Shown here piece after piece: positions 3,257 through 52,194 of a stretch of DNA of 64,000 nt. Below the pieces are notes generated by a model, which ran no database searches, was not told the DNA's origin, and was given only the letters and a program-made list of their open reading frames with translations. Source of the stretch: a phage; the NCBI GenBank assembly GCA_025829515.1, contig GCA_025829515.1_4865.1; one strand, given 5' to 3'. The position numbers and the translations under genes are program-made. How positions within the stretch are numbered: position 1 is the first letter of the stretch; each line of letters starts with the position of its first letter.

Positions 3257-3553
3257 ATGGGGTTTTACTCATCCACTGCACTTGAGCTGTTGTGTCGGCT
3301 CATTCAGCGGGATAATCCCCAACACGCAGGTCGAATCAGCGCAGATTCAATTGGGGAGTGTACGATCTATTACGATAAGTCGTTAAGCAGTAACACAGTG
3401 GCCGATGTTACCACCGCATCCAACTCGTTCGCTAATAAAGCGTACGGCCGCGCGGTTATCCAAACTGACGTCGAAGCAGCTGGAGTTAAAGGGATAGCGT
3501 ACTTCACCATAACAGCTAAAAATAGGCCCCGAAGGGCCTATTTTCTTTTTTAG
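3257..3553 (+). CDS. short N-terminal-module paralog of the receptor-binding family (98 aa), possibly a truncated remnant
   Basis: ATG with AGGAG RBS. Contains the RDNPQ and GECTIYYD motifs found at the N-termini of ORFs 3563 and 41. Its last codons overlap a strong terminator hairpin. Confidence 0.35.
   Translation: MGFYSSTALELLCRLIQRDNPQHAGRISADSIGECTIYYDKSLSSNTVADVTTASNSFANKAYGRAVIQTDVEAAGVKGIAYFTITAKNRPRRAYFLF
3523..3551 (+). terminator. rho-independent terminator (stem TAGGCCC / GGGCCTA, T-run)
   Basis: 7-bp GC-rich stem, CGAA loop, followed by TTTTCTTTTTT. Confidence 0.6.
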
Positions 3554-3562
3554 GACGTTGCA

Positions 3563-4882
3563 ATGATCAACTATAACAAACCTGTCATGCAGCTGGTTTG
3601 GGATCAGATTAATCGTGATAACCCGCAGCTCAAGAAACCACTCAACGCAACCAACGTGGCGTTATTACAAGGTCCTTTAACCAATGCCTTGCGCGATGGC
3701 CGCAACAGCCGTATAGTGGTAAACGGATTACAGGGTGGCGGTTACAGCGGTAAGATGGACATCTACTACGACCGCTTAAACCTTTCGCAGTATTTTAAAG
3801 GCGTCAGCGTACCGGTTAAAGTACCTTATCGGGCGACGTCCTACCGCGACATCATCGACCGGATTTCCGCAGCTTGTGGGCTGGTGCTTACTGCTGACGA
3901 TTTAACGTATCCTGACAGCCAGTTTGCAATGATCACTGTGGCAACGGGCGATCGGACGGTGGCGATTAAATCGGATAACCCCGCATTCACGGGTCACATT
4001 CCTATTAGCTTTATTCGTGAAGAGCCCAGCTTTGCCGACTTGTACCACACCACCGAAACCGGAGCTTGGGAACCCATGGATGTTTACAGCACGGTCTATC
4101 GACTCGACTGGAGCATGTACACCCAACAGATAATCAATATTCCAATGGGTACCCCGCTGCGACTAAACAGTAACTCGTACATGACCCAGTTCATCGCGGC
4201 GCTGTCGGCATGGTCGGGCATCCCGTTCACTATCGGTAATGCTGCTACCGATAACCCGTATGACCTCTATGGGTATGTCGCTACACGCAATAACAACCCA
4301 GGCTTAGACCCTGATATGCGTGGGGAGTACAATTACTGCGTGAAGTTGACGCCACCTGAGGATATGGGTAATCTCCGTCGTCCGTTCTTCTTGCACTTTG
4401 GTCCGAAAAATAACGTGGCCTATTTGGCGCAGGAAAAGGACGTCGAACGTTATGCGCGTTACATGAGGTTCCGGGAAACCAGCTCAAATTCGATGAGCGT
4501 CACGTTGTATCAAAACGAGTACGTGTTGACTCGGGCAGAATCGCCTGAAACTGCGGATGATTTAACGGGTTCCCCGTATGGCACTCGATACTGTACCGGG
4601 AGTATTCGACGGCTGATGCAACACGCGTTTCCGACCGAAGAGATGTTCCAAGAAAGTATTGCTAACCGACGTCGGGTACTGTACCACACTGCTTACACCA
4701 CCACGACATCAGCTATTACTTACCAGGGACTATACCGTAACGGATACCAATCCAAACAAATGACGAGCCTCTACTCGAATTACTGTAACTATTTCATCTA
4801 TTACGACCCAAGCAAAGGCGGCTATATGGTCTACAGTCCATATAGCAAAACCGCCCCGGTCCCTTGGTATCCAGCGCTATAG
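3563..4882 (+). CDS. putative tail fiber / receptor-binding protein (439 aa)
   Basis: ATG with RBS. N-terminal RDNPQ...YYDRLNLSQYF module; C-terminal YYDPSKGGYMVYSPYSKTAPVPW module shared with ORF 4897. Confidence 0.5.
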   Translation: MINYNKPVMQLVWDQINRDNPQLKKPLNATNVALLQGPLTNALRDGRNSRIVVNGLQGGGYSGKMDIYYDRLNLSQYFKGVSVPVKVPYRATSYRDIIDRISAACGLVLTADDLTYPDSQFAMITVATGDRTVAIKSDNPAFTGHIPISFIREEPSFADLYHTTETGAWEPMDVYSTVYRLDWSMYTQQIINIPMGTPLRLNSNSYMTQFIAALSAWSGIPFTIGNAATDNPYDLYGYVATRNNNPGLDPDMRGEYNYCVKLTPPEDMGNLRRPFFLHFGPKNNVAYLAQEKDVERYARYMRFRETSSNSMSVTLYQNEYVLTRAESPETADDLTGSPYGTRYCTGSIRRLMQHAFPTEEMFQESIANRRRVLYHTAYTTTTSAITYQGLYRNGYQSKQMTSLYSNYCNYFIYYDPSKGGYMVYSPYSKTAPVPWYPAL

Positions 4883-4896
4883 ACTAAGGTGTCACC

Positions 4897-7074
4897 ATGT
4901 CCTACACTCCTGATTTAGTGGCGACCGTGATTCGGTCGCTCAACCGTAAAAACGCGGTCGCCAAAGCAGTAGACCCCGCTAACGTACGCCTGGTGTCCGT
5001 GGCGCATCGTGACGAAAAAACCCTAGACGTCACACTGACAGGGGGTCCGGGGTATTCAAGTTACGGTCAAATTACGGCCCAAGTCACGAAGCAAAATATT
5101 GCTGATTATTTCGCCAAGGTTAAGTTGGATGCCATTCCCACTTGTGCGTCCATCCACGAACTGTTGCCGCATTTAGACACTCTACTAGGGATTACCTTTT
5201 TAACTGACGACTTTGAAGACCTGCCTATCACTTGGACAAACAATGCTGCGTGTATCACGTTCCAGGCGAAACAGACAAGTCTTATCTGGTACGGCAGCCA
5301 AACGCTAGATGTGATAAACGGTGACGTGGATATCAACACCGTCTACACTGTTACCAACATCATTCTCACGCTAAAGGCTGCGAATAAACAGCAGTGGATT
5401 AACTTCTACTCTAATGCAACCAAACGGATCGTGGATCTTGATAAAGTCGATGTCAGCTCCCCGATGTCCCCGGAGGATATAGGCCAAACCTCTGCGTATA
5501 ACAGCGTCGTAGCTTTGACCGCTAGACCGGGGAGCGGGATGTTTGGAACGAAGTATGTGTTCTTTTCACGTAACAAACTCGAGACATATGCAGGCAAAAC
5601 CACATACGTCCCGGATGATTTCACCGGTAGCCTGCACGATGCTCTGGCCATCGAGACACTCGGCATTCGGAGTGTTTTTGATGTAAACGAAATTGCTCCT
5701 GTAGAGAACCTGGCAGGCGAGTGGCCGAGACAAGTGCAATTGGCACCCGTAGAGGGTTCGTACAAAGTCATGGGCAGTGCCACGTTGAATGTGGCACGCT
5801 ATCAAGATAACGAGCAAACCCTTAACCTGAACTACACAACTACGTCGCAACTTTCGGACAGCTACTGGGCCACAACGTTGACCAACCATGCGGCGTGCGG
5901 GCGTTTGTTTGTTAACGTGACCGTAGATGCGGGGGCTTTCGTTTATCGCGACAGCAACCTGAAACCGACGTTCGTTATCGACGAATTGCCGCAAATTGGC
6001 GAGGTGGTTTGGAACTTCGTTAACCGGGGAACCATTCTTGGTCGTGGTGGTTCGGGTATGGTCTACTCTATGCCTGCGAACACATCAGCGGACGGAGCTG
6101 ACGCAATCCACATTACCGATGCCTTCCGCGGCAAAGTCACCATCGAAAACTACGGCACCATCGCCGGAGGTGGGGGCGGGGGCGACTACTATGCGTTTAG
6201 CACCACCAAGATCGGTGGAGCTGGTGGTGCGCCACTCGGGACAGGCGCGGTGGTGCCCAGCGGCACCAATAACCGTAACGGCTTAGCTGGGTCCCGTGAC
6301 AAAGGCGGTGCTACTCAGTTAGTCGTCGCACAATTTACCGGCTACCAGAGTCGCTACTATGGCGGTCCGGGTGGGGATTGGGGCCAGCCGGGACGATATA
6401 CAGCGTTCGAGCAATGGAACACCCCGGCTACCGGCTCGCCGATCTATGTCTACGGTCGTGAAGACGGGATGTCATGGACTCGCCCTGGGATGGCAGGCGA
6501 AGCCGTCGGTGGGAATAAAAGTATCGTCAACTGGGTATCCGTCGGAACGGTGAAACCGAATGTCACCAACGAGTACCAAGAGTTCCTCGACTACCTCGCA
6601 GATTTAGATGCCAACCGATTGGCCAGTGCGGATGGGATAGATAAAGTCACCGACCCAACCAAGCCTGTAGTTGTGGAGTTCTTAGGTACGATTATTTCAG
6701 GTACGCTGTTCCAAAAGCAAAACATACCCGGCGGTTTGGTGGGAACACCATACGGCGATGCTGTAGCCAACTTACCAGCCACCACATTGTTTGGTATCAT
6801 GGCACACTGTGTATCGGAGTTTGATATTGTGCACGACACTTGGCGTTACAACCGCGCGGTGATGTTCACGCTAAAACCCGCACCTACCGGGGCGATTAGC
6901 CTCGCTGTGGAACGCAACCGGGTGAAATCGGCTACCAGTAGTGCACCGGTGGAGAAGTTCTACGTCGATCGCTTCGTGTATTACGATGCGTATCTCGGTA
7001 AAATGATGGAATGTAATCCGTATACCAAATCTGCCCCTAAACCGTGGGTGCGGCCAACGATACCGTTATCGTAA
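4897..7074 (+). CDS. putative tail fiber protein with Gly-rich segment (725 aa)
   Basis: ATG with AAGGTG RBS. Gly-rich stretch (GGGGGGDYY...GGAGGAPLGTG); C-terminal YYDAYLGKMMECNPYTKSAPKPW module paralogous to the end of ORF 3563. Confidence 0.5.
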   Translation: MSYTPDLVATVIRSLNRKNAVAKAVDPANVRLVSVAHRDEKTLDVTLTGGPGYSSYGQITAQVTKQNIADYFAKVKLDAIPTCASIHELLPHLDTLLGITFLTDDFEDLPITWTNNAACITFQAKQTSLIWYGSQTLDVINGDVDINTVYTVTNIILTLKAANKQQWINFYSNATKRIVDLDKVDVSSPMSPEDIGQTSAYNSVVALTARPGSGMFGTKYVFFSRNKLETYAGKTTYVPDDFTGSLHDALAIETLGIRSVFDVNEIAPVENLAGEWPRQVQLAPVEGSYKVMGSATLNVARYQDNEQTLNLNYTTTSQLSDSYWATTLTNHAACGRLFVNVTVDAGAFVYRDSNLKPTFVIDELPQIGEVVWNFVNRGTILGRGGSGMVYSMPANTSADGADAIHITDAFRGKVTIENYGTIAGGGGGGDYYAFSTTKIGGAGGAPLGTGAVVPSGTNNRNGLAGSRDKGGATQLVVAQFTGYQSRYYGGPGGDWGQPGRYTAFEQWNTPATGSPIYVYGREDGMSWTRPGMAGEAVGGNKSIVNWVSVGTVKPNVTNEYQEFLDYLADLDANRLASADGIDKVTDPTKPVVVEFLGTIISGTLFQKQNIPGGLVGTPYGDAVANLPATTLFGIMAHCVSEFDIVHDTWRYNRAVMFTLKPAPTGAISLAVERNRVKSATSSAPVEKFYVDRFVYYDAYLGKMMECNPYTKSAPKPWVRPTIPLS

Positions 7075-7118
7075 TTTAACGAGGAACTTGACGGGTTTAA
7101 AGCCTGAAGATAATCCAT

Positions 7119-7152
7119 GCCCTCTTCCCCACGGGGAAGAGGCTTTCTTTTT
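7119..7152 (+). terminator. rho-independent terminator (CCTCTTCC...GGAAGAGG, T-run)
   Basis: GC-rich hairpin followed by CTTTCTTTTT; lies inside the 5' end of the track ORF 7117, which argues against that start. Confidence 0.6.
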
Positions 7153-7179
7153 ATGACCCTATCAACTCAGGAGGTTATC

Positions 7180-7770
7180 GTGGTCGATCGTTGGAGTAAA
7201 GAGGGCATTATTCGTGCCAAAGTAAACATCGAAGCCGGTTACGTTAATAACCCGAAAGATTTGGGCAAAGCAACGAACCGCGGTGTCACCGAACTCACTG
7301 CGCGCGAATATGGCTATAAAGGGGATATGCGTGACCTGAGCTTAGAAATCGCGTTAGACATTTACAACAAGCTCTGGTGGCAGCGGATGCGTTTAGACCA
7401 GATTATGAAAATGAATGTCCTGCTAGCTGACCGAATGTTTGATTTCGGCATTAACGCAGGACGCGGTAACTGTATCAAGTCCCTGCAACGTATTCTGAAC
7501 GTATTAAACCGTCAGGGTAAACTATACGATGATATCGATGCCGATGGTGGTATCGGGCCACGTACGTTAACAGCGTTAGAAGGCTTCATCAAAGCCCGTG
7601 GGGAAGAGGGCCTGAATCGACTGATGTTCGCTTTAACCTGTCATCAGGTTGCGTACTACACGGAAATCAGTGAAGGGCGTGAGGATAACGAAGAGTTTAC
7701 TTACGGCTGGTATGGCCGCGTCTATCAGGAAATGCCAGACTACGTGGCTAAGTTGGGGATGTGCAAATGA
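7180..7770 (+). CDS. GH108-family lysozyme-like protein with probable C-terminal peptidoglycan-binding domain
   Basis: Start revised to GTG at 7180 (AGGAGG RBS 5 nt upstream; the track start at 7117 would include the terminator). N-terminal EAGYVNNPKDLGKATNRGVT...GDMRDL...IY...LWW matches the conserved GH108 N-terminal signature from established knowledge of that family. Confidence 0.6.
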   Translation: MVDRWSKEGIIRAKVNIEAGYVNNPKDLGKATNRGVTELTAREYGYKGDMRDLSLEIALDIYNKLWWQRMRLDQIMKMNVLLADRMFDFGINAGRGNCIKSLQRILNVLNRQGKLYDDIDADGGIGPRTLTALEGFIKARGEEGLNRLMFALTCHQVAYYTEISEGREDNEEFTYGWYGRVYQEMPDYVAKLGMCK

Positions 7771-7958
7771 AACAGAATTGGTTTGCTGCCTTAATGAAAG
7801 CTATCTGGCGCGCCCTTGTTTTTGCCGCAAGGAGAAAACGTAATGACCCACCGTCCAACTCCGCCTAAGTTCCCCGAAGTACAAACCGTTCCGGAAACGT
7901 ATTACGATTCTGGGTTCTTCAAACTATTACGCGCGATCTTCTGTCGGAGGGTAAAGCC

Positions 7959-8051
7959 ATGCAATACGACAACGACGACTGGCCGAAAGGCTTAATGCCC
8001 ATTTTACTGGGATTAATGGTCCTCACGATGCTCGTGCGTTATATGACGTGA
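7959..8051 (+). CDS. tiny predicted membrane peptide (30 aa), holin-like candidate
   Basis: ATG with GGAGGG RBS; MQYDNDDWPKGLMPILLGLMVLTMLVRYMT has a single hydrophobic helix. Not in the ORF track (too short). An alternative 50-aa ORF at 7843-7995 in another frame competes. Confidence 0.2.
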   Translation: MQYDNDDWPKGLMPILLGLMVLTMLVRYMT

Positions 8052-8058
8052 GGTCAGT

Positions 8059-8700
8059 ATGGAAGCACTTAAGTATAAGTTGTTAGAGAAGCCGTGGTTT
8101 ATCCTCACGGATGATTTCCATTTCGAGTTTACGTTGCGCAGCCTCTATCGTGAACACGCCGGAATGGATGCGATGGTAGCATTAGCAGGTCTGCATCCGG
8201 ATACCCCGTTATGGGTAACGGTACCGAAAGGATTTGTGACGGACCTGGCAAGCATTCCAGAAGCGTTACGTCCTATCCTGCATCCGGATGGGCCTTGGGC
8301 TGCTGCCGCTTGTGTGCATGATTTGTTTTACCAGAAACGTTCATCGGTAGGCTTTTACCCTGACACTGTCGAAGGTAATCTATCTCGTGCATGTGACAAA
8401 ACATTCGCTGACCTGATGTTCTTACGTATCATGGAGGCATTAGGCGTTGACACCTTTATTCGTAAGTCCTTCTACCATGCCGTTCACGAGTTTGGTTGGC
8501 CGTCCTATGTAGACGATAACTCTAAGGTGGTTTATAGCCGGCCGGTAGAAAAGACGTTGTCCTATAATCGCAACTACCTGTTCTTTAGAACGTCGCGTAC
8601 GTTAGCGATTCCTGAACACGAACGTGTTGACATTACTAATGGGCAACCGGTAAACGTGCAGTATTTGAATATCAAACGTGCGTTCCTGACTACCCCTTAA
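8059..8700 (+). CDS. DUF1353-like phage protein (213 aa)
   Basis: VPKGFVTDLASIP...AAAACVHDLFY resembles the DUF1353 signature (VPxGFxTDGASIP...HD); GAGG RBS. Confidence 0.5.
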   Translation: MEALKYKLLEKPWFILTDDFHFEFTLRSLYREHAGMDAMVALAGLHPDTPLWVTVPKGFVTDLASIPEALRPILHPDGPWAAAACVHDLFYQKRSSVGFYPDTVEGNLSRACDKTFADLMFLRIMEALGVDTFIRKSFYHAVHEFGWPSYVDDNSKVVYSRPVEKTLSYNRNYLFFRTSRTLAIPEHERVDITNGQPVNVQYLNIKRAFLTTP

Positions 8701-8709
8701 GGAGAGAAA

Positions 8710-9225
8710 ATGTTTCATCCGAATCCTGCCAACTTCGCGTTAAAAGAGTTGATGCCGCAGGAGTACATCGCGAAATACGGTGAAGGTGCTATTCGTTTCC
8801 TTAATCCGTTACTGCTAATCTCGCTCCAACAGATTCGTAATCGTTTTGGGCGGATGGTGATTTTAACCAGTTCCCAGCAACAGCGTAGTCTGCGTACCCT
8901 GCAGTTCTTTATTAATCAAGAGAAACCAAAGGGTGGAGATTGGCAAACTCGTGCAAACAAACTGTACGCCGAATCAGGCAGTATGCATAAATTCGGTAAT
9001 GCGTTTGATGCAACAATGCTTGATACTCCGTTGCAGAAAGTACACGACTATATTGCCGCGAACCCTAACGAGTTTCCGTTTATTCACTTTATCGAGTGCG
9101 ATATTACCTGGCTGCATGTTGACGTACGCAACCAGCCTGATATCACCTTCTGGTCACCGACACGTGGTACCGTTAAAGTGGTTAAGCAACAACCCATCGA
9201 TTGGAGCAAGCTAGTTAAAATCTAA
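8710..9225 (+). CDS. peptidase M15-family (VanY / L-alanoyl-D-glutamate peptidase-like) cell-wall hydrolase
   Basis: HKFGNAFDAT and WLHVDVRN motifs match the H-x-x-G-x-A-x-D and H-V-D/E zinc-ligand motifs of M15 phage endolysins; AAGGAGAG RBS. Confidence 0.6.
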   Translation: MFHPNPANFALKELMPQEYIAKYGEGAIRFLNPLLLISLQQIRNRFGRMVILTSSQQQRSLRTLQFFINQEKPKGGDWQTRANKLYAESGSMHKFGNAFDATMLDTPLQKVHDYIAANPNEFPFIHFIECDITWLHVDVRNQPDITFWSPTRGTVKVVKQQPIDWSKLVKI

Positions 9226-9317
9226 GCCACTTTAATCAAAAGTAATATCATTTATCATTTGATACGTTTAATGCGCTTAGAGAGCGTTACAGAGCGTTTT
9301 AGAGGGTAAATAAAGCC

Positions 9318-9348
9318 CTTACCCACTCCCCTTACGGGAGTGGGTAAG
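9318..9348. terminator. bidirectional terminator hairpin (CTTACCCACTCCC / GGGAGTGGGTAAG)
   Basis: Perfect 13-bp stem, 5-nt loop, flanked by A-rich 5' and T-rich 3' tracts; sits between convergent genes 8710(+) and 9351(-). Confidence 0.6.
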
Positions 9349-9350
9349 CA

Positions 9351-9842
9351 TTATTTATTTTCTTCTAACGGAACAATCGTAATCGGAGTAGGAACTTCAC
9401 CGATAAACCCGCTGCTGCAGCGAAAGAATGTCATCCCTTTACCTTCGCCGGTATACGGGTTCACATCCGAAAAAGAGTAAGTGGGGCTATCGTTTACGGT
9501 TTTATTAATACGGTAATAACGCTCACCTGTGGTGGTGTTAACATTCCCGTCGATTTTGCCAATTGTATCTTTAAACATCATCGGTGACTCTAGTTTGCCA
9601 CCGTCCCACGTTGCTACCCAGTTTGCACCCACATCCATTACTGTTACTGACCGCGGCATCATCTGTAGATTGTCCAGAACCGGACGGTAGTCTATAAACT
9701 TCTCCTGCGTCCCTGTGCATGTATAAATCACCAAGTCGTGATTCTTTACTGGTGTGGCGCTAAATTGTCCTATGTTGCTTGGCGACTGAACACAACCGGC
9801 CAACAGGTTTATAATCGCGAGTACGATAAATAGACGTTTCAT
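9351..9842 (-). CDS. putative lipoprotein (163 aa)
   Basis: N-terminal signal peptide with lipobox LAGC (MKRLFIVLAIINLLAGCVQS); RBS present. Confidence 0.55.
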   Translation of the reverse strand: MKRLFIVLAIINLLAGCVQSPSNIGQFSATPVKNHDLVIYTCTGTQEKFIDYRPVLDNLQMMPRSVTVMDVGANWVATWDGGKLESPMMFKDTIGKIDGNVNTTTGERYYRINKTVNDSPTYSFSDVNPYTGEGKGMTFFRCSSGFIGEVPTPITIVPLEENK

Positions 9843-11247: not shown

Positions 11248-11789
11248 TCGTCCTCCTCAATCAGGCCAAGTTCTAACAACAAACCGAAGTCCAGCATCTG
11301 GAAGTCCTGATCGAGGTTACCGGCCCACAACAGAGAAATGTTGTGTTGCTCTTCTTCTTCCAACTGCGGGAGCAGGTGTTCTTCGAAGATTTGACGCTCT
11401 GTGTAATAAGCGTCAACCGGGTTATTGGAGCGTAAGTTACGAATACGCATCCGCGGGAAAGACAAGCCCAAAGCCACTAAACTTTCAGGACTGGCTTCAT
11501 CAATAGAGTGACGTAGCAGTTCGATTTTGTGGCGTGGGTATGCAAGCAGTCGCTTCTCAAAGCCAGGGTTGCGCTTTTCGATTTCCGCGACAGACTCGTG
11601 TCCTTTCTCAACGCAGTAGACCGGGATCATCACGTTCAGCCCGTATTTAATCAACAGGCTTTGGATTTCATCAGTGAAGTCTTCCCCTGCCACAATTGCG
11701 TGCACATTGTACAGCTTGCTTTTGCGCAGGAAGCGATCGACCAAGTGCAGTTTACGCTTCGTAAAATTGTGAATCAGTATTGACTTCAT
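11223..11789 (-). CDS. hypothetical protein in rSAM module (about 189 aa from ATG 11789)
   Basis: Start chosen at the internal ATG with ACGGAG RBS; the track start at 11867 would overlap the rSAM gene by about 116 nt. Confidence 0.4.
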   Translation of the reverse strand: MKSILIHNFTKRKLHLVDRFLRKSKLYNVHAIVAGEDFTDEIQSLLIKYGLNVMIPVYCVEKGHESVAEIEKRNPGFEKRLLAYPRHKIELLRHSIDEASPESLVALGLSFPRMRIRNLRSNNPVDAYYTERQIFEEHLLPQLEEEEQHNISLLWAGNLDQDFQMLDFGLLLELGLIEEDECLLLTKA

Positions 11790-13080
11790 TCTGGGCTCCG
11801 TTTTGTAATTTTTCTGCTTCGGCACGTTGGCGTACACAACGTGAACAATAGCACATGGATTTATCATGCAAATCTGATGCGCGAGTCGTACCAGTTTTCT
11901 GATACCAATATTCCGCCGCCATCAGCTTCGCAGTAGTCCAACCACACTGACGACGCTCGGCGTGATACGCTTTACGGTCTTCCAGTGTACCTTCACCGTT
12001 TTCGTACGATGCTGCTGCGCAGCTACCGCAGCTGTGTTTCATCGGACACCCTAAACAGGTTTCTGGGTAGTTGGTGTACTGCGTTTGAATCTCTTCTAAC
12101 AGCTTACCGCCGTCCAGGCTCACAAACTCACGACCAACCAGTTCCGCTACAGCAGAGCGGGAAGTTACCGTGGACATGAAACGGTTACAACCGTAAATCT
12201 TGCGATCAAAGCCGAGACAGGTCATGTGCGTCAACGTACCGCAGTACGGTTTCAGGCGTTCTGGGTCGAGACGAACAGAGTCGTCATGTAAGAGTTTGTC
12301 ACGCCAATCCGGGTCCCAAGTTGCCATAAAGTTCAGGCCATCCGGGATGATGTGTGTAATCGTGTTACGCGGGTTGGTGTGCAGACCCTTCTCAATCCAG
12401 TAGTCCATCACGTCCATCATCTGGTTCGCGATATCCAACGCCATATGGCGCGGCAGGATATCTTCGTACGTTACGTTACCAGAGATGGTACCACCGCCGG
12501 ACATGTCAATTAACGATTTCATGCTGGCGGCATAGTGCGGCAATGTATCGATCGTAAACGTCGCCTTTACGCCCAGCTCAGCGATGCCAACACTCTTCAG
12601 ATAATTGTAACCGCGTACCGCAGCTTCGTACGACCCTTCACGCGTCGTGGTAAAGATACGATATTTGTCATGGACTTCAGGTAAACCATCGATGGAGACC
12701 CCAATAGACAGTTTGTCTTTCCAGCGCTCGATAATTTCTTTGTTCAGCGGACGGTCCAGAAGCGTACCGTTCGTGGAGATACTGAACATATACGGGCGAT
12801 TGTGTTCTGCGCATAACTTCTCTGCGGTTTCAAAGGCCGCCAAAAGAAGTTTAGGCTGCATGAACGGCTCACCACCGATGATATCGATGATGACTTCAAC
12901 GTTCGGGATATCTTTATCACGCTCGAAACAAGCGTGGATAAAATCAATCACGTCTGCTACTTTGTTGTTACGCGGATATTTACGCTCGTAGCAGTATTCG
13001 CAGTCCAGGTTACATGACAGGTTAGTCACAACCTGATACGTGCGTGGTGTGTACTGGATTTGCTGTTCGCTATTACTCAT
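11752..13080 (-). CDS. radical SAM enzyme with Cys-rich C-terminal SPASM-like domain (442 aa), putative peptide/protein maturase
   Basis: N-terminal CNLDCEYCY (CxxxCxxC radical-SAM cluster motif); C-terminal Cys cluster (CLGCPMKHSCGSCAA...CGW...CYCSRC) typical of SPASM auxiliary Fe-S domains (anSME / sacti- / ranthipeptide maturase type). Confidence 0.7.
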   Translation of the reverse strand: MSNSEQQIQYTPRTYQVVTNLSCNLDCEYCYERKYPRNNKVADVIDFIHACFERDKDIPNVEVIIDIIGGEPFMQPKLLLAAFETAEKLCAEHNRPYMFSISTNGTLLDRPLNKEIIERWKDKLSIGVSIDGLPEVHDKYRIFTTTREGSYEAAVRGYNYLKSVGIAELGVKATFTIDTLPHYAASMKSLIDMSGGGTISGNVTYEDILPRHMALDIANQMMDVMDYWIEKGLHTNPRNTITHIIPDGLNFMATWDPDWRDKLLHDDSVRLDPERLKPYCGTLTHMTCLGFDRKIYGCNRFMSTVTSRSAVAELVGREFVSLDGGKLLEEIQTQYTNYPETCLGCPMKHSCGSCAAASYENGEGTLEDRKAYHAERRQCGWTTAKLMAAEYWYQKTGTTRASDLHDKSMCYCSRCVRQRAEAEKLQNGAQNEVNTDSQFYEA

Positions 13081-13987
13081 TGTTCGCCGCCCGTTTACGC
13101 TTAGCAGAAATTACACGGTTGATGTAGTTATACGCATCAACGCCGATAGAACGCGCCAGGCGATTACAGCCGACTTCCAATATCTCTGGGGCGTTCTGAA
13201 TTTGCTCCTGCGTACCGTCGGCGTTAAGCCACAGCACTTCACTGCACGTGTTGCACTCGGTATCGAACATTTTACTGATCGCAAGCCCACATTCAGAATC
13301 GTTCTGCATGTTAAGGCGTTCGATATTGTCGAGTATTTTCCAATACCCGTACATGAAGTTCATGACGTGGTCTGGCGATAACGGTTTCGGCATCATCGCA
13401 TCAAACAACAACGACACACCACCTGGACGGTAATGATAGATTGCTCGGTGCAGCTCGATGAAATCTTCGTACCAGCGTTTATCACCTAACTGGTCACGCG
13501 TCATCACACCCCAGGTGTAATAGTTGTCCAGCTCGTACAGCACTTCCAGCGCTTCGTGATTACCACCGTTTACAAAGTTCATAAACGGACGTTCCGACTT
13601 CTTGTAGCCGTCAATGGACACAAAGATAAGGTCGAACTGTTTCAGCAACGGCAGATGTGACTTACGCATCTTTAAACCGTTGGTGTACATGTGATGACGG
13701 AGGTTCGGATGAGACTCCTTCAACTCGTTCACGAAGTCTTCAATCTTACGCTGCGCTAACAGCGGCTCACCGCCCGTCCAATGAATCTCACCGATATCCG
13801 GATTCTTCTCTAAAATAGAGAGAATCTCTTCACGTTGAAACTCACGAGAAGTATCTTCTCTATCCATGTAATAAGCCCCTCCACAGAAGCTACAGTCTAA
13901 GTTACACTTAGAAGTTGCGACAACCGACAGAATTGACGGTTTGTCGTACAGTTCAGACGAGATCCTGGATTCTACTTGATCTGTCAT
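13073..13987 (-). CDS. radical SAM enzyme (second maturase-like, about 304 aa from ATG 13987)
   Basis: SKCNLDCSFCGG (CxxxCxxC) near the N-terminus; C-terminal ECGLAIS...ECNTCSE...GCN partial auxiliary-cluster (twitch-like) pattern. The track TTG start at 14023 is an alternative. Confidence 0.65.
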   Translation of the reverse strand: MTDQVESRISSELYDKPSILSVVATSKCNLDCSFCGGAYYMDREDTSREFQREEILSILEKNPDIGEIHWTGGEPLLAQRKIEDFVNELKESHPNLRHHMYTNGLKMRKSHLPLLKQFDLIFVSIDGYKKSERPFMNFVNGGNHEALEVLYELDNYYTWGVMTRDQLGDKRWYEDFIELHRAIYHYRPGGVSLLFDAMMPKPLSPDHVMNFMYGYWKILDNIERLNMQNDSECGLAISKMFDTECNTCSEVLWLNADGTQEQIQNAPEILEVGCNRLARSIGVDAYNYINRVISAKRKRAANNE

Positions 13988-40628: not shown

Positions 40629-43139
40629 ATGCTCAAGGTCGAACGTATCATTTTGAAAGGATTTACCGGCATGGGGTTACATGAAATCGAAACGTTTGAT
40701 TTCACCCTTAAGTCAACCGTTACCATCATCCTCGGTGGCAACGGCTGCGGTAAAACAAGCCTCCTATCTGTTTTTCTCCCCTTAGCTCCAGCAAAATCTG
40801 AATTCCGTGAAGGTGGTTCTTACACTAACTACGCGTTAGTCGGGGACGACCGTCTTAAGTTTGAAGTCCTGCGACGTGGGTCTTCTTTGTCTTGTAGTAT
40901 TTTCAATATCACTAAAGGTGTCTCCATCGTAGACTCGGTAAACGCCAAAGTTTACAACTCCATGGTGGAGCAATTAACCGGAATCACCAAAGAAATCAAA
41001 GAGTTAATTAATGGTGAGACCTTATTAACTGACGCCACTACCGAAGTTCGTCGTAAATGGTTTACGTTAATGTCAGAATCTGATCTGACGTACGTTGTTG
41101 GTTGCTATCGACGTTTGCGTAAACTCGCTTCCAGTTTAAGTGGGGCCATTGAGCACACCGGCCGTAAAATCGGTGAGGCAAAAATGCGCGTGGTGGACGA
41201 TGAAGAAGATCGTGCACGTTTGGAAGTTCGTTTGAAAGAACTCGATGCTGAGCTTCAGGAATTAAACCGCACAATTGAAGCGAGACCCGGTTTAGATAAT
41301 GCCGTTTCGGTTGATAGTATCCGGAAACGCATTGCTTCGTTGCAACCGGCTGTAAAACTCATTATGGAACGTTATGGCGTTCTGCCTTCTGACGAACTGA
41401 TTAACGAGTTTCAAAGTCGTGTGGTTGCCTGGCGTGAGCAAGCTGCCTCTGCTGAAACTGAATGCAACATGTACAATAAAGAGTTGTCACAGCTACTGGA
41501 TGAGGAGTCGCGTCAAGCGTATCTGATGCGCAACCATACCGGTCTAAAACAAACAATCGACAGCTTAAAACAGGAACTGGCAACGTTCCAACAGAACTGG
41601 ATGTTCCCGGCTCTGTTTGAAGGTACCCGCATTGATGTGGATAGCATTCAGAACGCGTTAAACGATGCCTGTAACTGGAATTTACCGTTGTCCATGCATC
41701 TGGACCAGTTAAAGACAACAGATCGCCTGGGAGCGTTAGAGAAGCGTTTACAGGGTATGGATTTAACCTCTGCGGGTCTATCTGAAAAGCTGCAACGTTG
41801 TGAGAATGTGCTACACGGTTTATACCACGACCGTCAACACTTCTTAGAAACTGCAGAAGTTGATTGTCCACAGTGTAACCACCGTTTCCGTCCTGGGATT
41901 CGTAAGTCGTTACCTGAAATTGAAAAGGCCATCAACGATAATGAAGGTTGGAAGAAGCAGCTGAAAGACGAAATGGATAGTCTTTTGCGTGACCGCAAAG
42001 AGATTGAAGAGGACGTCCGTAGCTTACGTACGATTCGCGAAATCGTCATGTCGTATTCCAACCATCCTGTTGTCGGTTTGTTTTTCCGTAAACTGCAGGA
42101 GCTGGATATCTTCACCACGGCGCGGGATCGTTATGGTGCCATTGCACGTGCCTTTACCGAAGAGTTAGATTCGGCCATGATGTATCTGCGTCAATCAGCG
42201 AAGCTTGCAACAGCGGAACGGGAATGGCAAGAGGCTGTTGCCGCAGTAGGTAATGTTGATGGTGCGCTGAGCCAGAAAATTGAACATATCCGTTCACAAC
42301 TGGACGGGGCTAACCGTCGACTGATAGAATACCGCAGACAAGCCAATGAGCTGGAACGCGAAACCACCCAACTGCAACAAACCAAAGAAGCAATCGAACG
42401 TTTCCAAAAAGGCTACGAACATCTGGTATCGGAAATGAACATCTCCGTTAACAACGTCGTGGTTCGCGAGTTGTTAAACCGACGCGAAGCGAAGCTCGAT
42501 GCGTACACTTCCGCTCGTGAACGGTTTCGTCAAATGGAAGGGGCTATTGCACGTTTAGCGGAATTGGAAAAAGAGCAAGCTGAGTTGCTCAAAGAACACC
42601 ATCATGCCAGATTGATTATCAATGCCGTCTCACCCGAAAAAGGATTATTGCGTCGTTACTTTTATGCTGCGATTACCCGCATCATGGATTTAATGAATCG
42701 GTATATCGAAATGGTGTGGGCATATCCGATGCAGGTTATTCCATGCGATCTAACCGACGGGGATTTGGATTATACTTTCCCGGTGCGATTAAAAGACCAT
42801 GAAGAACTGGTGCCGGATGTGAAGAAAGGTTCAAAAGCACAGCGTATCATTTTCAACATGATGTTTCGTTTAACGGCGTATAAAGCACTTGGTTTACAAA
42901 ATTATCCTTTGTTATTGGATGAACCATCTGAAGGCATGGATGAAGAACACAAAAACCGATTAGTTAACTTCATTAAATCGTTGGCGTTGTCGGGAGAGTT
43001 TTCTCAATTGCTGGTCGTTTCGCATGAAGCGGAAGTTCATTCTAAACTTAACGAAGCCACCTACTGTGTCGTAGAACCAGAAGGTGTAACGCTTCCACCG
43101 GTGTATAACGAAGGGGTAATAATCAAATATGCATCATAA
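40629..43139 (+). CDS. Rad50/SbcC-like recombination/repair ATPase with zinc hook (836 aa)
   Basis: N-terminal Walker A GGNGCGKTS; long coiled-coil middle containing CPQCNHRF (CxxC zinc-hook); C-terminal LLLDEPSEGMDEEH (Walker B / D-loop) and VVSHE (H-loop). Confidence 0.7.
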   Translation: MLKVERIILKGFTGMGLHEIETFDFTLKSTVTIILGGNGCGKTSLLSVFLPLAPAKSEFREGGSYTNYALVGDDRLKFEVLRRGSSLSCSIFNITKGVSIVDSVNAKVYNSMVEQLTGITKEIKELINGETLLTDATTEVRRKWFTLMSESDLTYVVGCYRRLRKLASSLSGAIEHTGRKIGEAKMRVVDDEEDRARLEVRLKELDAELQELNRTIEARPGLDNAVSVDSIRKRIASLQPAVKLIMERYGVLPSDELINEFQSRVVAWREQAASAETECNMYNKELSQLLDEESRQAYLMRNHTGLKQTIDSLKQELATFQQNWMFPALFEGTRIDVDSIQNALNDACNWNLPLSMHLDQLKTTDRLGALEKRLQGMDLTSAGLSEKLQRCENVLHGLYHDRQHFLETAEVDCPQCNHRFRPGIRKSLPEIEKAINDNEGWKKQLKDEMDSLLRDRKEIEEDVRSLRTIREIVMSYSNHPVVGLFFRKLQELDIFTTARDRYGAIARAFTEELDSAMMYLRQSAKLATAEREWQEAVAAVGNVDGALSQKIEHIRSQLDGANRRLIEYRRQANELERETTQLQQTKEAIERFQKGYEHLVSEMNISVNNVVVRELLNRREAKLDAYTSARERFRQMEGAIARLAELEKEQAELLKEHHHARLIINAVSPEKGLLRRYFYAAITRIMDLMNRYIEMVWAYPMQVIPCDLTDGDLDYTFPVRLKDHEELVPDVKKGSKAQRIIFNMMFRLTAYKALGLQNYPLLLDEPSEGMDEEHKNRLVNFIKSLALSGEFSQLLVVSHEAEVHSKLNEATYCVVEPEGVTLPPVYNEGVIIKYAS

Positions 43140-43320
43140 AGGTTGGCGCTTATGGGCTTGGTGGGGTTTTCAGTTCCTTCAGTTTGTTGTGATGGTACTG
43201 TACCTCTCCTTTTGTGCAACCGTAGTGGTTATCGCTGCGGTCGTTTATTTAGCTGCTGCTCTTAAAGAACGTCTGTTCGACACGCGTTGTGAGTGGCGAG
43301 ATATAGGGGAACGGACATGA
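43129..43320 (+). CDS. small hydrophobic membrane protein (63 aa)
   Basis: Trp-rich N-terminus and two predicted TM helices; start overlaps the end of the Rad50-like gene. Confidence 0.4.
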   Translation: MHHKGWRLWAWWGFQFLQFVVMVLYLSFCATVVVIAAVVYLAAALKERLFDTRCEWRDIGERT

Positions 43321-43421
43321 TTGAAGGTATCGTATTAACCGGTATTGCACTGTGGTTGATTCGTGGTGCCTGGGGTTGGATTATCCGCACGAAAGGATGG
43401 GCGTTCCATGGCAACACGTAA
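43317..43421 (+). CDS. tiny hydrophobic peptide (34 aa)
   Basis: ATGA overlap with the upstream stop; MIEGIVLTGIALWLIRGAWGWIIR is a single TM-like helix. Not in the track. Confidence 0.25.
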   Translation: MIEGIVLTGIALWLIRGAWGWIIRTKGWAFHGNT

Positions 43422-43611
43422 ACCACGTCGCTTAAAATCTTGGGCGGTTGTGATAATGCACACTGTAGTGTTGCTGGGTATTTTCTTGTCTCGTGCCACG
43501 CCTGCCTTTTGGGGCTTAGTTGTTTTGGTGTTCTTAGAAGGGGTTTACTTCGGTAATCTGTGGAGCAAGCCCCCGCGTTTAAGGGACCCGGCTTATGACA
43601 GTCGTGAATAG
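43408..43611 (+). CDS. small membrane protein (about 67 aa)
   Basis: Start chosen at ATG 43408 (AAAGGATGG RBS); two hydrophobic helices. Confidence 0.35.
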   Translation: MATRKPRRLKSWAVVIMHTVVLLGIFLSRATPAFWGLVVLVFLEGVYFGNLWSKPPRLRDPAYDSRE

Positions 43612-43726
43612 TGTCAACGCGGCGATGATTGCAACGGGTGCGTATGACGGTGCCACATGGACAGATGTTGGTATCACGCTTATCATTTGCGCAATCGGAG
43701 CGTTTGTAGCAACATGGTTATTTTAG
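43595..43726 (+). CDS. tiny hydrophobic peptide (43 aa)
   Basis: ATG overlapping the end of the previous ORF; GITLIICAIGAFVATWLF TM-like segment. Not in the track. Confidence 0.25.
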   Translation: MTVVNSVNAAMIATGAYDGATWTDVGITLIICAIGAFVATWLF

Positions 43727-43839
43727 TGAAATGGGTTGGGTGTATCGTCTGTAGCCTGATACTAGGAGCGGGCGCATACGCCCTAGGCGCAATCCTTGCA
43801 TTGACGCAAGGTTGGTTTTAACAGGAGGGTAATTACGAA

Positions 43840-46275: not shown

Positions 46276-46998
46276 ATGTTTCGCACCATTTTATTTCTTC
46301 TGGTAGCAATGACTACGTTCAACAGCAACGCTTCTTACCAGACCACCAGTAACAAACACCAAAAAGAATTCGTCCTTATCCAGGACCAGTTCAATGAGAT
46401 TAAACCTCTCATCGTCACCGCATCTCGAAAACAAGGCGTACATGCCGGGATGCTCGCGACCACCATTTATCGTGAATCCCGTTTTAATAAAAACGTGGGT
46501 AAGAATAAATCGAGCAGTGCTAGTAGTGTTGTCCAAATGACGACAGGCACTAAACGCTCCATGATACGTCTGTATGGGAAACAACTTAACATCCCAAAGA
46601 ATGCGGACCTTAATAAACCGAAGTATGCTGTACAGCTTGCTGCCGTTTACATGAAACACATCGAGGATCATCTGACAAAACAACTCAAACGCAAGCCGAG
46701 CACAGCCGAAATCGCTTTAGGCTACCGCTTCGGTGAGGGTGCTGCTGTTGCGATGATTAAAAAGAAATCACCGGTCGGGAAACGCTGGATGGCCAGCTAC
46801 CGAAAAGACGCAGCATTCTACGGTGCGAAAATGACACCACCGAAAGCTGAAACACGTCAGCTTGCTTTTGCGAAGGAAGACCGCGACCAACGCGTCGCTG
46901 AGCTTCAGAAAATCTGGGATACGCTGTACACCAAAATATCACCTGCGGCCGGTACATTACTGGCAAATAACACTATCATGAAAGGAGCATTGCTTTGA
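46276..46998 (+). CDS. secreted lytic transglycosylase-like (SLT-domain) protein, 240 aa
   Basis: Signal peptide MFRTILFLLVAMTTFNSNA; RESRFN (catalytic E-S), VVQMT (compare GLMQ) and LGYRFGEGAA (compare AYNAG) resemble the SLT domain motif order. Confidence 0.4.
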   Translation: MFRTILFLLVAMTTFNSNASYQTTSNKHQKEFVLIQDQFNEIKPLIVTASRKQGVHAGMLATTIYRESRFNKNVGKNKSSSASSVVQMTTGTKRSMIRLYGKQLNIPKNADLNKPKYAVQLAAVYMKHIEDHLTKQLKRKPSTAEIALGYRFGEGAAVAMIKKKSPVGKRWMASYRKDAAFYGAKMTPPKAETRQLAFAKEDRDQRVAELQKIWDTLYTKISPAAGTLLANNTIMKGALL

Positions 46999-47639: not shown

Positions 47640-47906
47640 GTGTTCGTGAAACGTTTAATAAATTTTCTCTACTGGATGGAGAAACGCTATAGCCACAACA
47701 TTCCGATGATGTATAGTTTGTTATTCTCCACGGTAATGTTGGTAATCGGTGCGATCGTCGCACATCTGATGGAACTCACGTCCCCATGGGCGCAACTCTT
47801 TCTTACCATCTGGATGTTGTTCTCAGGCTACCACATACGTGGTTTCATAACCCGATTCTTTCGCTGGCGGAGTACCTGGCACGTCTTTAATTCCGACCGT
47901 AACTAG
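47640..47906 (+). CDS. small membrane protein (88 aa)
   Basis: Two hydrophobic helices (LLFSTVMLVIGAIVAHLM; LFLTIWMLFSGY). Confidence 0.4.
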   Translation: MFVKRLINFLYWMEKRYSHNIPMMYSLLFSTVMLVIGAIVAHLMELTSPWAQLFLTIWMLFSGYHIRGFITRFFRWRSTWHVFNSDRN

Positions 47907-51189: not shown

Positions 51190-51705
51190 GTGAGCATGAT
51201 AGCATCAGTTTTCAAACTGCTTCCATTCTTACAGATGCTGTGGGAAGCATTTAAACCGGGCGAGGGGGAGAAAGTAACACGAGCCGGGAAAATAGTGACA
51301 CTAGTGATAGTGGCACTGATCGCGTTCTCTGCATTTGTCTCATATGCCTATATTGTTCAATACCACACACTGGTTAGCGTTCAATCGCGTACTCAGTATC
51401 TGGAGATATCCTATAAGGAGCTAAAAGAGAAGTCCGATCATAGCGAAGTGGAGAACAATAAGTTGTACGATCGTCTCTTCACGTGCCTGGGTTCTCGACC
51501 GCCATATGATGGTACCAAATCTCCAACAGGAACAGGCACTGAGGCCGCGGTTCCGCCTGTAGATCTCAAGCCGGTAACACCGCCGGCACCGTTAAATCCG
51601 TCTAGCCCACCTGCCAAGAAATACCAGGCCGCTTCTCGCCCGGTAGGGTCGCAGGAGGCAAATGATTTCCGACAGGAGATTATCAGTACGCTTAATAATC
51701 CATGA
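51190..51705 (+). CDS. membrane-anchored coiled-coil protein, i-spanin-like candidate (171 aa)
   Basis: N-terminal TM helix (IVTLVIVALIAFSAFVSYAYIV), then a charged coiled-coil-like region and a Pro-rich tail; immediately followed by a lipoprotein gene. The start is GTG 51190 or ATG 51196. Confidence 0.3.
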   Translation: MSMIASVFKLLPFLQMLWEAFKPGEGEKVTRAGKIVTLVIVALIAFSAFVSYAYIVQYHTLVSVQSRTQYLEISYKELKEKSDHSEVENNKLYDRLFTCLGSRPPYDGTKSPTGTGTEAAVPPVDLKPVTPPAPLNPSSPPAKKYQAASRPVGSQEANDFRQEIISTLNNP

Positions 51706-51714
51706 GGAGTATAC

Positions 51715-52194
51715 ATGAAGTTATTTTTGGTGGCGATACTGGTGCTATTGTTGACAGGATGCCCTGGAGCCATCCGTCACGTAGACCCAGATTACTCCTC
51801 AACCGGAGATTGGCCTTTTCGTCCTTTAGAACACCCACCAGTTTATGCTGGTGGGAACAGTCCTGAGGTGAAAAAGCTGGCAGGGAAAATGTTTGTTGCG
51901 GATGTGAACGCTTATGCTTATTACGTTTATCTGTACGCTAAGTCGTTGAACAATTACGCAGAAGCTAAGGGGTGGCGCACCCCGATGGCCGCACCGCTTT
52001 GTGAAGAGTTTATTCGCCCCACTCTTCATGATATACCCTCCGGGATATATCTCGACCCTGGTTCTCGTAGCCCTCAAGACATTAGTCGTGATTTGTCACG
52101 ACAGATTAAGTCTCTCATTCGCAGCTATCGCGAAGACAGAGAGTCTTTTAATCATGCCTACGAACGGCACAAAAGTAGTTGCCTTGTGCAATGA
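51715..52194 (+). CDS. lipoprotein, o-spanin-like candidate (159 aa)
   Basis: Signal peptide with lipobox LTGC; GAGGAG RBS. Longer than typical o-spanins, so the assignment is tentative. Confidence 0.35.
   Translation: MKLFLVAILVLLLTGCPGAIRHVDPDYSSTGDWPFRPLEHPPVYAGGNSPEVKKLAGKMFVADVNAYAYYVYLYAKSLNNYAEAKGWRTPMAAPLCEEFIRPTLHDIPSGIYLDPGSRSPQDISRDLSRQIKSLIRSYREDRESFNHAYERHKSSCLVQ

Follow-up and report, generated by a model that had tools for sequence, protein, structure and literature searches.

The window is a 64,000-nucleotide stretch of phage DNA (contig GCA_025829515.1_4865.1 of GenBank assembly GCA_025829515.1) that comes from an SPN3US-like jumbo phage of the genus Seoulvirus. SPN3US, the type Seoulvirus, is a 240-kb phage related to phiKZ. 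For bases 6800-9600, identity is 99.4% with the Salmonella phages MET_P1_082_240 and SPLA1a and 95.7% with SPN3US itself. The region from 7180 to 9225 holds six tightly packed, co-directional genes on the plus strand: a homolog of SPN3US gp156, three small open reading frames (ORF-a, ORF-b, and ORF-c), and homologs of gp157 and gp158. By computational analysis throughout, the products are a predicted muramidase, three very small peptides, a predicted phospholipase A2 (PLA2)-like protein, and a predicted zinc peptidase, which make the unit a candidate for an attack on the bacterial envelope. An earlier sequence-only reading of the window had singled out this region as a possible lysis cassette, or alternatively one with an enzyme carried in the virion for entry. 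The SPN3US numbering is used throughout and continues with gp155 (4897-7074) upstream and with gp159 (9351-9842, minus strand) and gp160 downstream.

Within the unit, neighboring genes are separated by gaps of 7-9 nt or joined by ATGA-type overlaps. The upstream boundary, between gp155 and gp156, is formed by a terminator-like hairpin on the plus strand (7121-7142; dG -16.9 kcal/mol, z -3.0) that is followed by CTTTCTTTTT, with the T-run reaching to 7152. Compensatory changes keep this fold in the divergent Seoulvirus member STsAS. The downstream boundary is a bidirectional terminator with a 13-bp stem (9318-9348, both strands) that is common to the unit and the convergent gp159. Its dG is -24.6 on the plus and -28.4 on the minus strand (z about -6.1), and none of 200 shuffles folds equally well. 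The packing of the genes and the flanking terminators are compatible with one transcript. A scan for sigma-70 promoters returned 2 sites against 4.7 expected and is uninformative; SPN3US-like phages use their own RNA polymerases.

Three predicted envelope hydrolases

The first gene, gp156 (7180-7770, plus strand), encodes a predicted muramidase/endolysin with matches in Pfam, PHROG, and the PDB. The sequence-only reading had called it a GH108-type lysozyme, and the Pfam scores bear this out: Glyco_hydro_108 (PF05838) is matched with 65 bits (cutoff 21.2) and PG_binding_3 (PF09374) with 68.4 bits (cutoff 24.6). The endolysin family PHROG_315 is matched as well (E=4.8e-39). The closest solved relatives are Sen1395 (6V3Z, E=1.7e-41) and TtsA (6V40, E=4.5e-39), to which the alignment extends through the C-terminal domain; both are muramidases of phage origin that have been studied in connection with typhoid-toxin secretion. 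In TtsA the catalytic triad consists of Glu14, Asp19, and Thr28 (PMC6996933). The glutamate (in EAGY instead of EGGY) and the threonine (in KATNRG) are retained in gp156, and the position of Asp19 is taken by an asparagine, as it is in Sen1395, which is enzymatically active and degrades ordinary peptidoglycan. On sequence grounds, gp156 is firmly assigned as a predicted GH108 muramidase of the Sen1395/TtsA type. It has neither a signal peptide nor a transmembrane domain (TMD; maximum KD19 hydrophobicity 0.68); lacking any hydrophobic segment, it would therefore need passage across the inner membrane.

Three start codons can be considered for gp156. The GTG at 7180, which the sequence-only reading had chosen, comes out best: a GGAGG Shine-Dalgarno sequence lies 5 nt upstream, and the homologs in four other lineages start just before a common (D/E)RWSKEG motif. 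The ATG at 7153, used in public records including RefSeq SPN3US, lies right after the T-run of the terminator, has no Shine-Dalgarno sequence, and opens a frame that hits a stop in pEa_SNUABM_29. The start at 7117 from the raw ORF list is an artefact, the first codons of the extension being the terminator hairpin. The public start at 7153 is a probable misannotation passed on between records, with GTG 7180 as the conserved start.

The DUF1353 gene that had been named in the sequence-only reading is found at 8059-8700 (plus strand), where gp157 scores 63.7 bits against the Pfam cutoff of 22.5. The founding characterized DUF1353 protein is TtaP, encoded by the fifth gene of the typhoid-toxin islet, which was shown experimentally in 2024 to be a phospholipase A2 and is the one member for which sn-2 phospholipid hydrolysis has been demonstrated (PMC11525133). 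TtaP is a distant relative of the group XIV secreted PLA2s with the catalytic residues H70, D71, and D85 (PMC11525133). BLASTP aligns gp157 with the TtaP ortholog of Salmonella enterica subsp. diarizonae (locus L107) at 37% identity (E 2e-17), and H87, D88, and D118 of gp157 fall on the three catalytic positions. These residues and the motif PKGFVTDLASIP are invariant across 30 diverse gp157 homologs. With 213 residues, gp157 is considerably larger than TtaP (125 residues), and the DUF1353 proteins of jumbo phages are in general about 90 residues longer. The additional N- and C-terminal regions are jumbo-phage-specific and β-rich, and no signal peptide is present. The best structural match of the predicted fold is a fungal PLA2, and the core resembles group XIV secreted PLA2. 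PDB sequence searches with gp157, by single sequence or profile, gave nothing meaningful, and fold comparison alone is informative here. gp157 belongs to the DUF1353/TtaP family and keeps all three catalytic residues, and phospholipase A2 activity is predicted for it.

The last gene, gp158 (8710-9225, plus strand), encodes a predicted zinc peptidase that is assigned by fold and motifs. Its score against the Pfam family M15_3 (PF08291) is 16.8 bits, below the cutoff of 23.2, and the match covers residues 32-55 only. A PDB sequence relative was found neither by single-sequence nor by profile search. The match to PHROG_894, labeled ‘endolysin’, has an E value of 2.8e-26, and fold comparison places the predicted structure in the Hedgehog/DD-peptidase (LAS) fold. 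Residues H93, D100, H136, D138, R140, and R62 are invariant in 16 homologs with 47-77% identity; we take them to correspond to the zinc ligands of the H-x6-D ... H pattern and to the H-x-D-x-R and S-x-x-R motifs of M15A enzymes. A signal peptide and a TMD are absent. gp158 is best filed as a divergent, M15A-like zinc peptidase of the LAS/M15 fold that falls outside the specific Pfam family. The earlier designation as an M15 metallopeptidase holds for the fold and the motif residues and falls short of the Pfam gathering threshold. Profile searches, on which the sequence-only reading had staked both of its hydrolases, give strong support to GH108 and a sub-threshold score to M15.

Public records label the three genes unevenly. 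For gp156 the names ‘endolysin’, ‘peptidoglycan domain protein’, and ‘hypothetical’ are in use, for gp157 ‘tail assembly chaperone’ and ‘DUF1353’, and for gp158 ‘endolysin’ and ‘hypothetical’.

Three micro-genes between gp156 and gp157

The 288 bases from gp156 to gp157 encode three small genes that overlap, and every one of them has a Shine-Dalgarno sequence of its own. The sequence-only reading had placed a single 30-aa, single-TM peptide ORF between the enzymes at 7959-8051 (ORF-c). This ORF is real, and two more at 7767-7868 and 7843-7995 had been missed.

ORF-a (7767-7868, plus strand) encodes a 33-aa cationic amphipathic peptide, MKQNWFAALMKAIWRALVFAARRKRNDPPSNSA, and its ATG overlaps the stop codon of gp156 (ATGA). 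The peptide has a net charge of +6, an RRKR cluster, and an amphipathic helix with a hydrophobic moment of 0.61. It is conserved in STsAS, pEa_SNUABM_29, phiEaH2, and the L029 metagenomic group. In comparison with STsAS, the proportions of nonsynonymous (pN) and synonymous (pS) change are 0.19 and 0.75 in this frame; each alternative frame is either interrupted by stops or has a pS that hardly exceeds pN. ORF-a is unannotated in the public records inspected.

ORF-b (7843-7995, plus strand) codes for 50 residues that include the conserved core DSGFFKLLRAIFCRRV; it shares 26 nt with ORF-a and 37 nt with ORF-c. It is preceded by an AAGGAG Shine-Dalgarno sequence and is annotated only in EC001. 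The core has a pN of 0.095 and a pS of 0.67 against STsAS, in its own frame only. In relatives ORF-b terminates at RRV(AP/VE), where an ATGA joins it to ORF-c. In SPN3US-type sequences this stop at the ORF-c start has been lost (TGA to TGC), which adds 12 non-conserved codons that overlap ORF-c (7959-7995).

ORF-c (7959-8051, plus strand) encodes the 30-aa peptide MQYDNDDWPKGLMPILLGLMVLTMLVRYMT, which has an acidic N-terminus, one TMD (KD15 hydrophobicity 2.58), and a C-terminus of 4 residues. It starts 188 nt after gp156 behind a GGAGGG Shine-Dalgarno sequence and is annotated in some relatives, e.g. SPLA1a and SaP7. The peptide is conserved in STsAS and pEa29; the comparison with STsAS gives a pN of 0.24 and a pS of 1.0 (saturated synonymous change). 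The peptides of ORF-a and ORF-b are amphipathic and not transmembrane. STsAS and pEa_SNUABM_29, two divergent members of Seoulvirus with 66% nucleotide identity in this region, keep all three ORFs, and the substitution patterns against STsAS indicate that each is under purifying selection solely in its own frame. None of the three peptides matches Pfam or PHROG, including any holin family, and to our knowledge they are smaller than known holins.

Outside Seoulvirus the set of micro-ORFs varies. phiEaH2 carries ORF-a and ORF-b, the metagenomic jumbo group L029-L032 carries ORF-a only, and Machinavirus- and Wellingtonvirus-like phages carry an ORF-c-like single-TMD peptide of 37-52 aa, some of them together with the N-terminal part of ORF-b. 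Micro-ORFs are present wherever GH108 is present. In Derbicusvirus (CR5, Phobos) both GH108 and every micro-ORF are missing, and the peptides therefore accompany the muramidase. An unrelated metagenomic phage encodes a 29-aa peptide with an acidic N-terminus and a TMD that overlaps the stop codon of its GH108 gene.

Conservation and neighborhoods of DUF1353

The arrangement of the locus is more than 95% identical across 33 Seoulvirus-type records. For the more distant comparison, local searches were run over all fetched loci of seven jumbo-phage lineages. GH108, DUF1353, and M15 genes are all present in Seoulvirus and in the L029 metagenomic group. Erskinevirus, the Machinavirus-like phages, and the Wellingtonvirus-like phages have GH108 and DUF1353 and no M15, Derbicusvirus has DUF1353 and an overlapping M15 and no GH108, and Vibrio phage pVa-21 has DUF1353 and neither of the hydrolases. 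DUF1353 is found in 7/7 lineages and adjoins GH108 and/or M15 in 6/7. The surrounding genes are rearranged between lineages, and the adjacency of DUF1353 is therefore retained and not passively inherited. The comparisons indicate that the gp156-gp158 arrangement is not due to chance, because it is kept in the 33 Seoulvirus-type records and the adjacency persists in six of the seven diverged lineages. phiKZ is not among the DUF1353 tblastn matches; GH108 and the gp158-type M15 were not searched for in phiKZ.

Several unrelated small phages carry DUF1353 within clear lysis clusters. In Pseudomonas AH02 it shares a short same-strand cluster with a holin and membrane proteins, in Fusobacterium FNU_1P the order is M15 endolysin, DUF1353, and holin, and in Caulobacter DMCA it is M15, Pro-rich lipoprotein, and DUF1353. 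The metagenomic loci L017 and L021 show GH108, intervening genes, a Pro-rich lipoprotein, and DUF1353, the last with a Sec signal peptide in L021. In three alphaproteobacterial phages an o-spanin-like lipoprotein with a Pro-rich C-terminus lies directly upstream of DUF1353 (L014 3086-3352, L017 3610-3993, L021 3671-3997). A rule that such a lipoprotein always lies 5′ of DUF1353 does not extend beyond these three: it was found for 1/29 upstream neighbors, against 4/301 background ORFs. For a broader census, 230 ORFs within 3 kb of DUF1353 in 30 IMG/VR clusters were searched against Pfam and PHROG. This gave about 12-14 peptidoglycan-hydrolase matches and 2 holin matches, next to terminases and Q/NinG, and DUF4376 or tail-fiber-type neighbors in about 8/30 clusters. 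One IMG/VR contig (L059) carries two DUF1353 paralogs about 2.5 kb apart (3390-3800 and 6282-6770).

The genes that flank the unit have features of their own. gp155 (plus strand) has an N-terminal DUF7941 domain that also occurs in the abundant head protein gp160 and in its paralogs, together with a glycine-rich, Gp38 tail-fiber-adhesin-like domain. In SPN3US, mass spectrometry assigned gp155 to the head with 55 spectra, and an adhesin-like domain within a head protein is odd. gp159, which converges on the cluster, encodes a predicted lipoprotein, MKRLFIVLAIINLLAGC, with the lipobox LLAGC (PHROG_9559), and could serve as an exclusion or envelope protein. Further downstream (11752-13986, minus strand) lie a radical-SAM gene pair, a DUF4376 gene, and a small gene, which are also seen in L007-L010. 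They stay near DUF1353 in every related jumbo-phage genus examined, in varying orientation. Eleven records of the SPFM series (LR535901, LR535903-LR535908, LR535911-LR535913, and LR535917) match the region only in 5-40 short pieces and give garbled protein entries (e.g. P0020-P0028 and P0057-P0060), and the fragmented matches suggest many indel errors in these assemblies.

Lysis, entry, or another role at the envelope

We give about an even chance to the reading that 7180-9225 is a late operon for lysis and demolition of the envelope that includes a lipid-hydrolyzing component. One late transcription unit of six genes would jointly attack every layer of the Gram-negative envelope. At its core, the soluble GH108 muramidase gp156 would cut the glycan strands, in combination with the membrane peptides. 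The three translationally coupled micro-peptides, two of them cationic amphipathic helices and one single-pass, would perturb the inner membrane in a holin-like manner and let the signal-less enzymes into the periplasm. As accessory hydrolases, the M15-type zinc peptidase gp158 would cut the peptide stems, and the TtaP-type PLA2 gp157 would hydrolyze membrane phospholipids. Thereby gp157 would weaken the inner and/or outer membrane and speed the collapse of the envelope, alongside a separately encoded spanin-like pair. As gp156, gp157, and gp158 lack signal peptides and TMDs, they would need membrane permeabilization to reach the periplasm. The same need has been stated for TtsA (PMC13284979). 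The close packing of the six genes between terminators, the tiny membrane-peptide genes that follow GH108 in every case, and the holin/endolysin clusters around DUF1353 in unrelated small phages speak for this reading.

A number of observations weigh against a lysis operon. The cluster sits amid virion-protein genes, and the flanking gp155 and gp160 are head proteins. Two of the enzymes have been seen in particles: gp157 is listed as a low-abundance ‘Head’ protein of wild-type SPN3US virions, with 9 spectra, 4 unique peptides, and 25% coverage (PMC5694885), and for gp158 whole virions yielded 2-3 spectra, whereas neither tailless nor gp241-minus particles yielded any (PMC5105663 Table 5). The sequence-only reading had proposed virion proteomes as a check on both hydrolases; they contain traces of gp158, next to gp157, and gp156 is never listed (PMC5694885, PMC5105663). 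ORF-c ends 4 residues past its TMD (RYMT), without the charged C-terminal tail of canonical holins, and in the Machinavirus and Wellingtonvirus analogs, too, only a few residues follow the TMD. Of the proposal that ORF-c is a possible mini-holin, the TMD, the small size, and the position near the endolysin stand, and the charged tail and a holin family match are missing. Outside the jumbo clade, the enrichment of lysis genes near DUF1353 is modest, at about twice our rough chance estimate, and DUF1353 is not regarded here as a universal lysis gene. Non-lysis contexts of DUF1353 include Arash, a Mu-like Helicobacter prophage, and chromosomal lipoprotein forms. Nor does GH108 generally travel with DUF1353: in the 80 bacterial loci with a TtsA-like GH108 gene, DUF1353 lies within 5 kb in only one, the typhoid-toxin islet.

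A second candidate set of lysis genes lies elsewhere in the window, and a lysis role of the gp156-gp158 unit is therefore not required; the two sets could be redundant or divide the work. An SLT-domain transglycosylase is encoded at 46276-46998 (plus strand; Pfam SLT E=2.2e-6), as the sequence-only reading had noticed, and is a candidate alternative endolysin. Its hydrophobic N-terminus, MFRTILFLLVAMTTFNSNA, is similar to a Sec signal or to a signal-anchor-release (SAR) domain, with which the protein could reach the periplasm without a holin. The spanin-like pair recognized in the same reading is also present (51193-52194, plus strand): it consists of a protein with a TMD and a coiled, Pro-rich region and a lipoprotein with an LLTGC lipobox, and no family match was found for the pair. 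Further small TM ORFs in the window are alternative holin or pinholin candidates. They comprise three consecutive ORFs of 63, 82, and 54 aa at 43129-43821 (plus strand), each with 1-2 predicted TMDs, and an 88-aa ORF at 47640-47906 (plus strand), which starts about 640 nt after the SLT gene.

The lysis cassette and virion-associated enzymes are the two leading readings. A split of functions, which we consider rather unlikely and still the strongest rival, would leave lysis to gp156 and the micro-peptides and make gp157 and gp158 low-copy entry enzymes of the virion. These would make local openings in the peptidoglycan and remodel membrane lipid as the genome and proteins are ejected, and could possibly be related to the early membrane vesicle around the injected DNA in nucleus-forming jumbo phages. 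The pattern in SPN3US particles fits this division: gp157 is found in wild-type and tailless particles, gp158 at low counts in whole virions, and gp156 never. The spectral counts are, however, very low and inconsistent. gp157 was undetected in three mutant particle preparations (PMC5694885), and gp158 gave 0, 4, and 7 spectra in later mutant preparations and was judged by Ali et al. to be probably nonspecifically associated. A late-made, membrane-binding lipase could moreover copurify with debris. The DUF1353 protein of Arash (Gp082) is also part of a virion proteome, but this proteome is not stringent, as it lists 116 proteins including ribonucleotide reductases, and is discounted here.

The genomic evidence on the split is likewise divided. 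Derbicusvirus keeps the overlapping DUF1353 and M15 genes without GH108 or micro-ORFs, and three other genera keep GH108, a micro-ORF, and DUF1353 without M15, so that the two proposed halves are separable by lineage. The approximately 90 extra residues of the jumbo-phage proteins over TtaP, the DUF4376/tail-fiber-type genes that adjoin DUF1353 in about 8/30 clusters, and the location inside a block of virion genes would also suit a virion protein. On the other hand, gp157 lies only 7 nt from ORF-c, inside the endolysin operon, and DUF1353 genes of small phages occur in lysis-cassette contexts. The Sec signal peptide of the L021 phage protein is ill-suited to packaging into a virion, and gp157 contains no A/S/G-x-E prohead-protease motif, as inspected by eye only.

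The cluster might instead serve another purpose at the envelope, such as nonlytic release or remodeling in the manner of type 10 secretion, or competition with and exclusion of other phages, perhaps together with gp159. TtsA and TtaP, the nearest characterized relatives of two components, act in a nonlytic toxin-secretion islet (PMC6996933, PMC11525133, PMC13284979), and the lipoprotein gene at 9351-9842 (minus strand) converges on the cluster. Such a role is improbable for a strictly lytic jumbo phage with no evident cargo gene. Phage lysis cassettes are the presumed origin of type 10 secretion systems (T10SS) themselves (PMC13284979), and Sen1395, the closer structural match of gp156, degrades ordinary peptidoglycan. 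The least probable reading, with gp157 as a structural-assembly factor beside unrelated hydrolases (an endolysin and a dispensable or decayed peptidase) that form no functional unit, follows the PHROG_1158 label ‘tail assembly chaperone’, which RefSeq has copied, and the position of some DUF1353 genes after tail-fiber or DUF4376 genes; no experimental basis was found for the label, the founder of the family is an experimentally shown PLA2 (PMC11525133) whose catalytic H/D/D gp157 keeps, gp158 is not decayed, as every metal-binding and motif residue is kept in homologs of 47-77% identity, and the adjacency outlasts rearrangements in six lineages.

The favored lysis operon has partial counterparts in several known systems. 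The lambda S-R-Rz/Rz1 cassette likewise links a soluble endolysin to small membrane proteins in overlapping or coupled genes that are bounded by a terminator. In the phage unit, by comparison, the endolysin comes first, two further enzymes (a peptidase and a PLA2-like protein) are added, and the spanin-like genes lie about 42 kb away. Its membrane peptides are 30-50 aa long, without a charged C-terminal tail or a holin family match. LysA and LysB of mycobacteriophages follow the same concept, with a lipid-ester hydrolase encoded beside the peptidoglycan hydrolase so that the outer lipid layer is breached when the cell lyses. The target of LysB, a cutinase-like serine esterase, is mycolyl-arabinogalactan, whereas gp157 is His/Asp PLA2-like and belongs to a phage of a Gram-negative host, and the two show no homology. 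Jumbo phages such as phiKZ possess several muralytic enzymes, one for lysis (the phiKZ endolysin gp144) and one in the virion (phiKZ gp181), both of which are lytic transglycosylases; the window similarly encodes an SLT-domain protein. The group XIV PLA2s of Streptomyces violaceoruber (1LWB) and Tuber borchii (4AUP) share a helical catalytic core and the His/Asp dyad with gp157. They are secreted and disulfide-bonded, whereas gp157 has no signal peptide and carries extra β-rich N- and C-terminal regions.

ChiX, of the Serratia ChiWXYZ system, is an M15-type L-Ala-D-Glu endopeptidase. It has been described as a ‘peptidoglycan hydrolase’, and the T10SS of Serratia (ChiWXYZ) and Salmonella (ChiH-ChiP) combine holin and peptidoglycan-hydrolase modules from phage lysis cassettes (PMC13284979). 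Unlike the phage unit, these systems are bacterial and regulated, have cargo genes and recognizable holins, and contain no PLA2 component. The typhoid-toxin islet of Salmonella Typhi overlaps in gene content: TtsA (GH108) and TtaP (DUF1353) represent the same two families as neighbors, and TtsA, TtaP, Sen1395, gp156, and gp157 all lack a signal peptide. The arrangement differs. ttsA and ttaP are convergent, and ttaP is cotranscribed with cdtB, whereas the phage genes are co-directional, with three micro-ORFs in between and an M15-like gene after them. The islet of S. enterica subsp. diarizonae (L107, 3090-7069) contains two pltB-like genes, pltA, ttsA, the convergent ttaP, and cdtB. No convincing ORF-c-like small TM ORF was found next to ttsA in this islet, and the ‘unidentified holin’ of typhoid-toxin secretion does not appear to be encoded there in phage-like form.

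None of the three enzyme families is new, and public databases already contain the genes. We found nothing in the searchable literature that treats DUF1353/PLA2 as part of a phage operon for lysis or envelope attack, describes the three micro-genes, or connects this phage module with the neighboring TtsA and TtaP of the islet. A 2026 review of jumbo phages never mentions holins or spanins. We tentatively propose, as somewhat less probable than not, that a PLA2 of the DUF1353/TtaP type is, in some phages, an unrecognized envelope-breaching enzyme, either as a member of a lysis cassette with micro-peptides or as the first virion-delivered phage PLA2, and that TtsA and TtaP of the islet are a domesticated remnant of such a module.

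The locus exposes database errors that have been propagated, namely the label ‘tail assembly chaperone’ for DUF1353, for which no experimental basis was found, the likely wrong start of gp156, and two conserved micro-genes that are missing from the public records inspected. Lysis by phiKZ-like jumbo phages is poorly defined, and the operon supplies concrete candidates for it. A phospholipase in an envelope-attack operon would add a step of lipid hydrolysis to the holin-endolysin-spanin scheme of Gram-negative hosts. It would also give a natural context for TtaP in the typhoid-toxin islet (PMC11525133) and may be relevant to typhoid-toxin secretion, namely to its unidentified holin and its outer-membrane step (PMC13284979). 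If the proposal is true, TtaP would be indicated as the missing outer-membrane release factor, and tiny unannotated peptides would be the type of ‘unidentified holin’ to expect for type 10 secretion. The enzymes and the cationic peptides are, in addition, candidate antibacterial parts.

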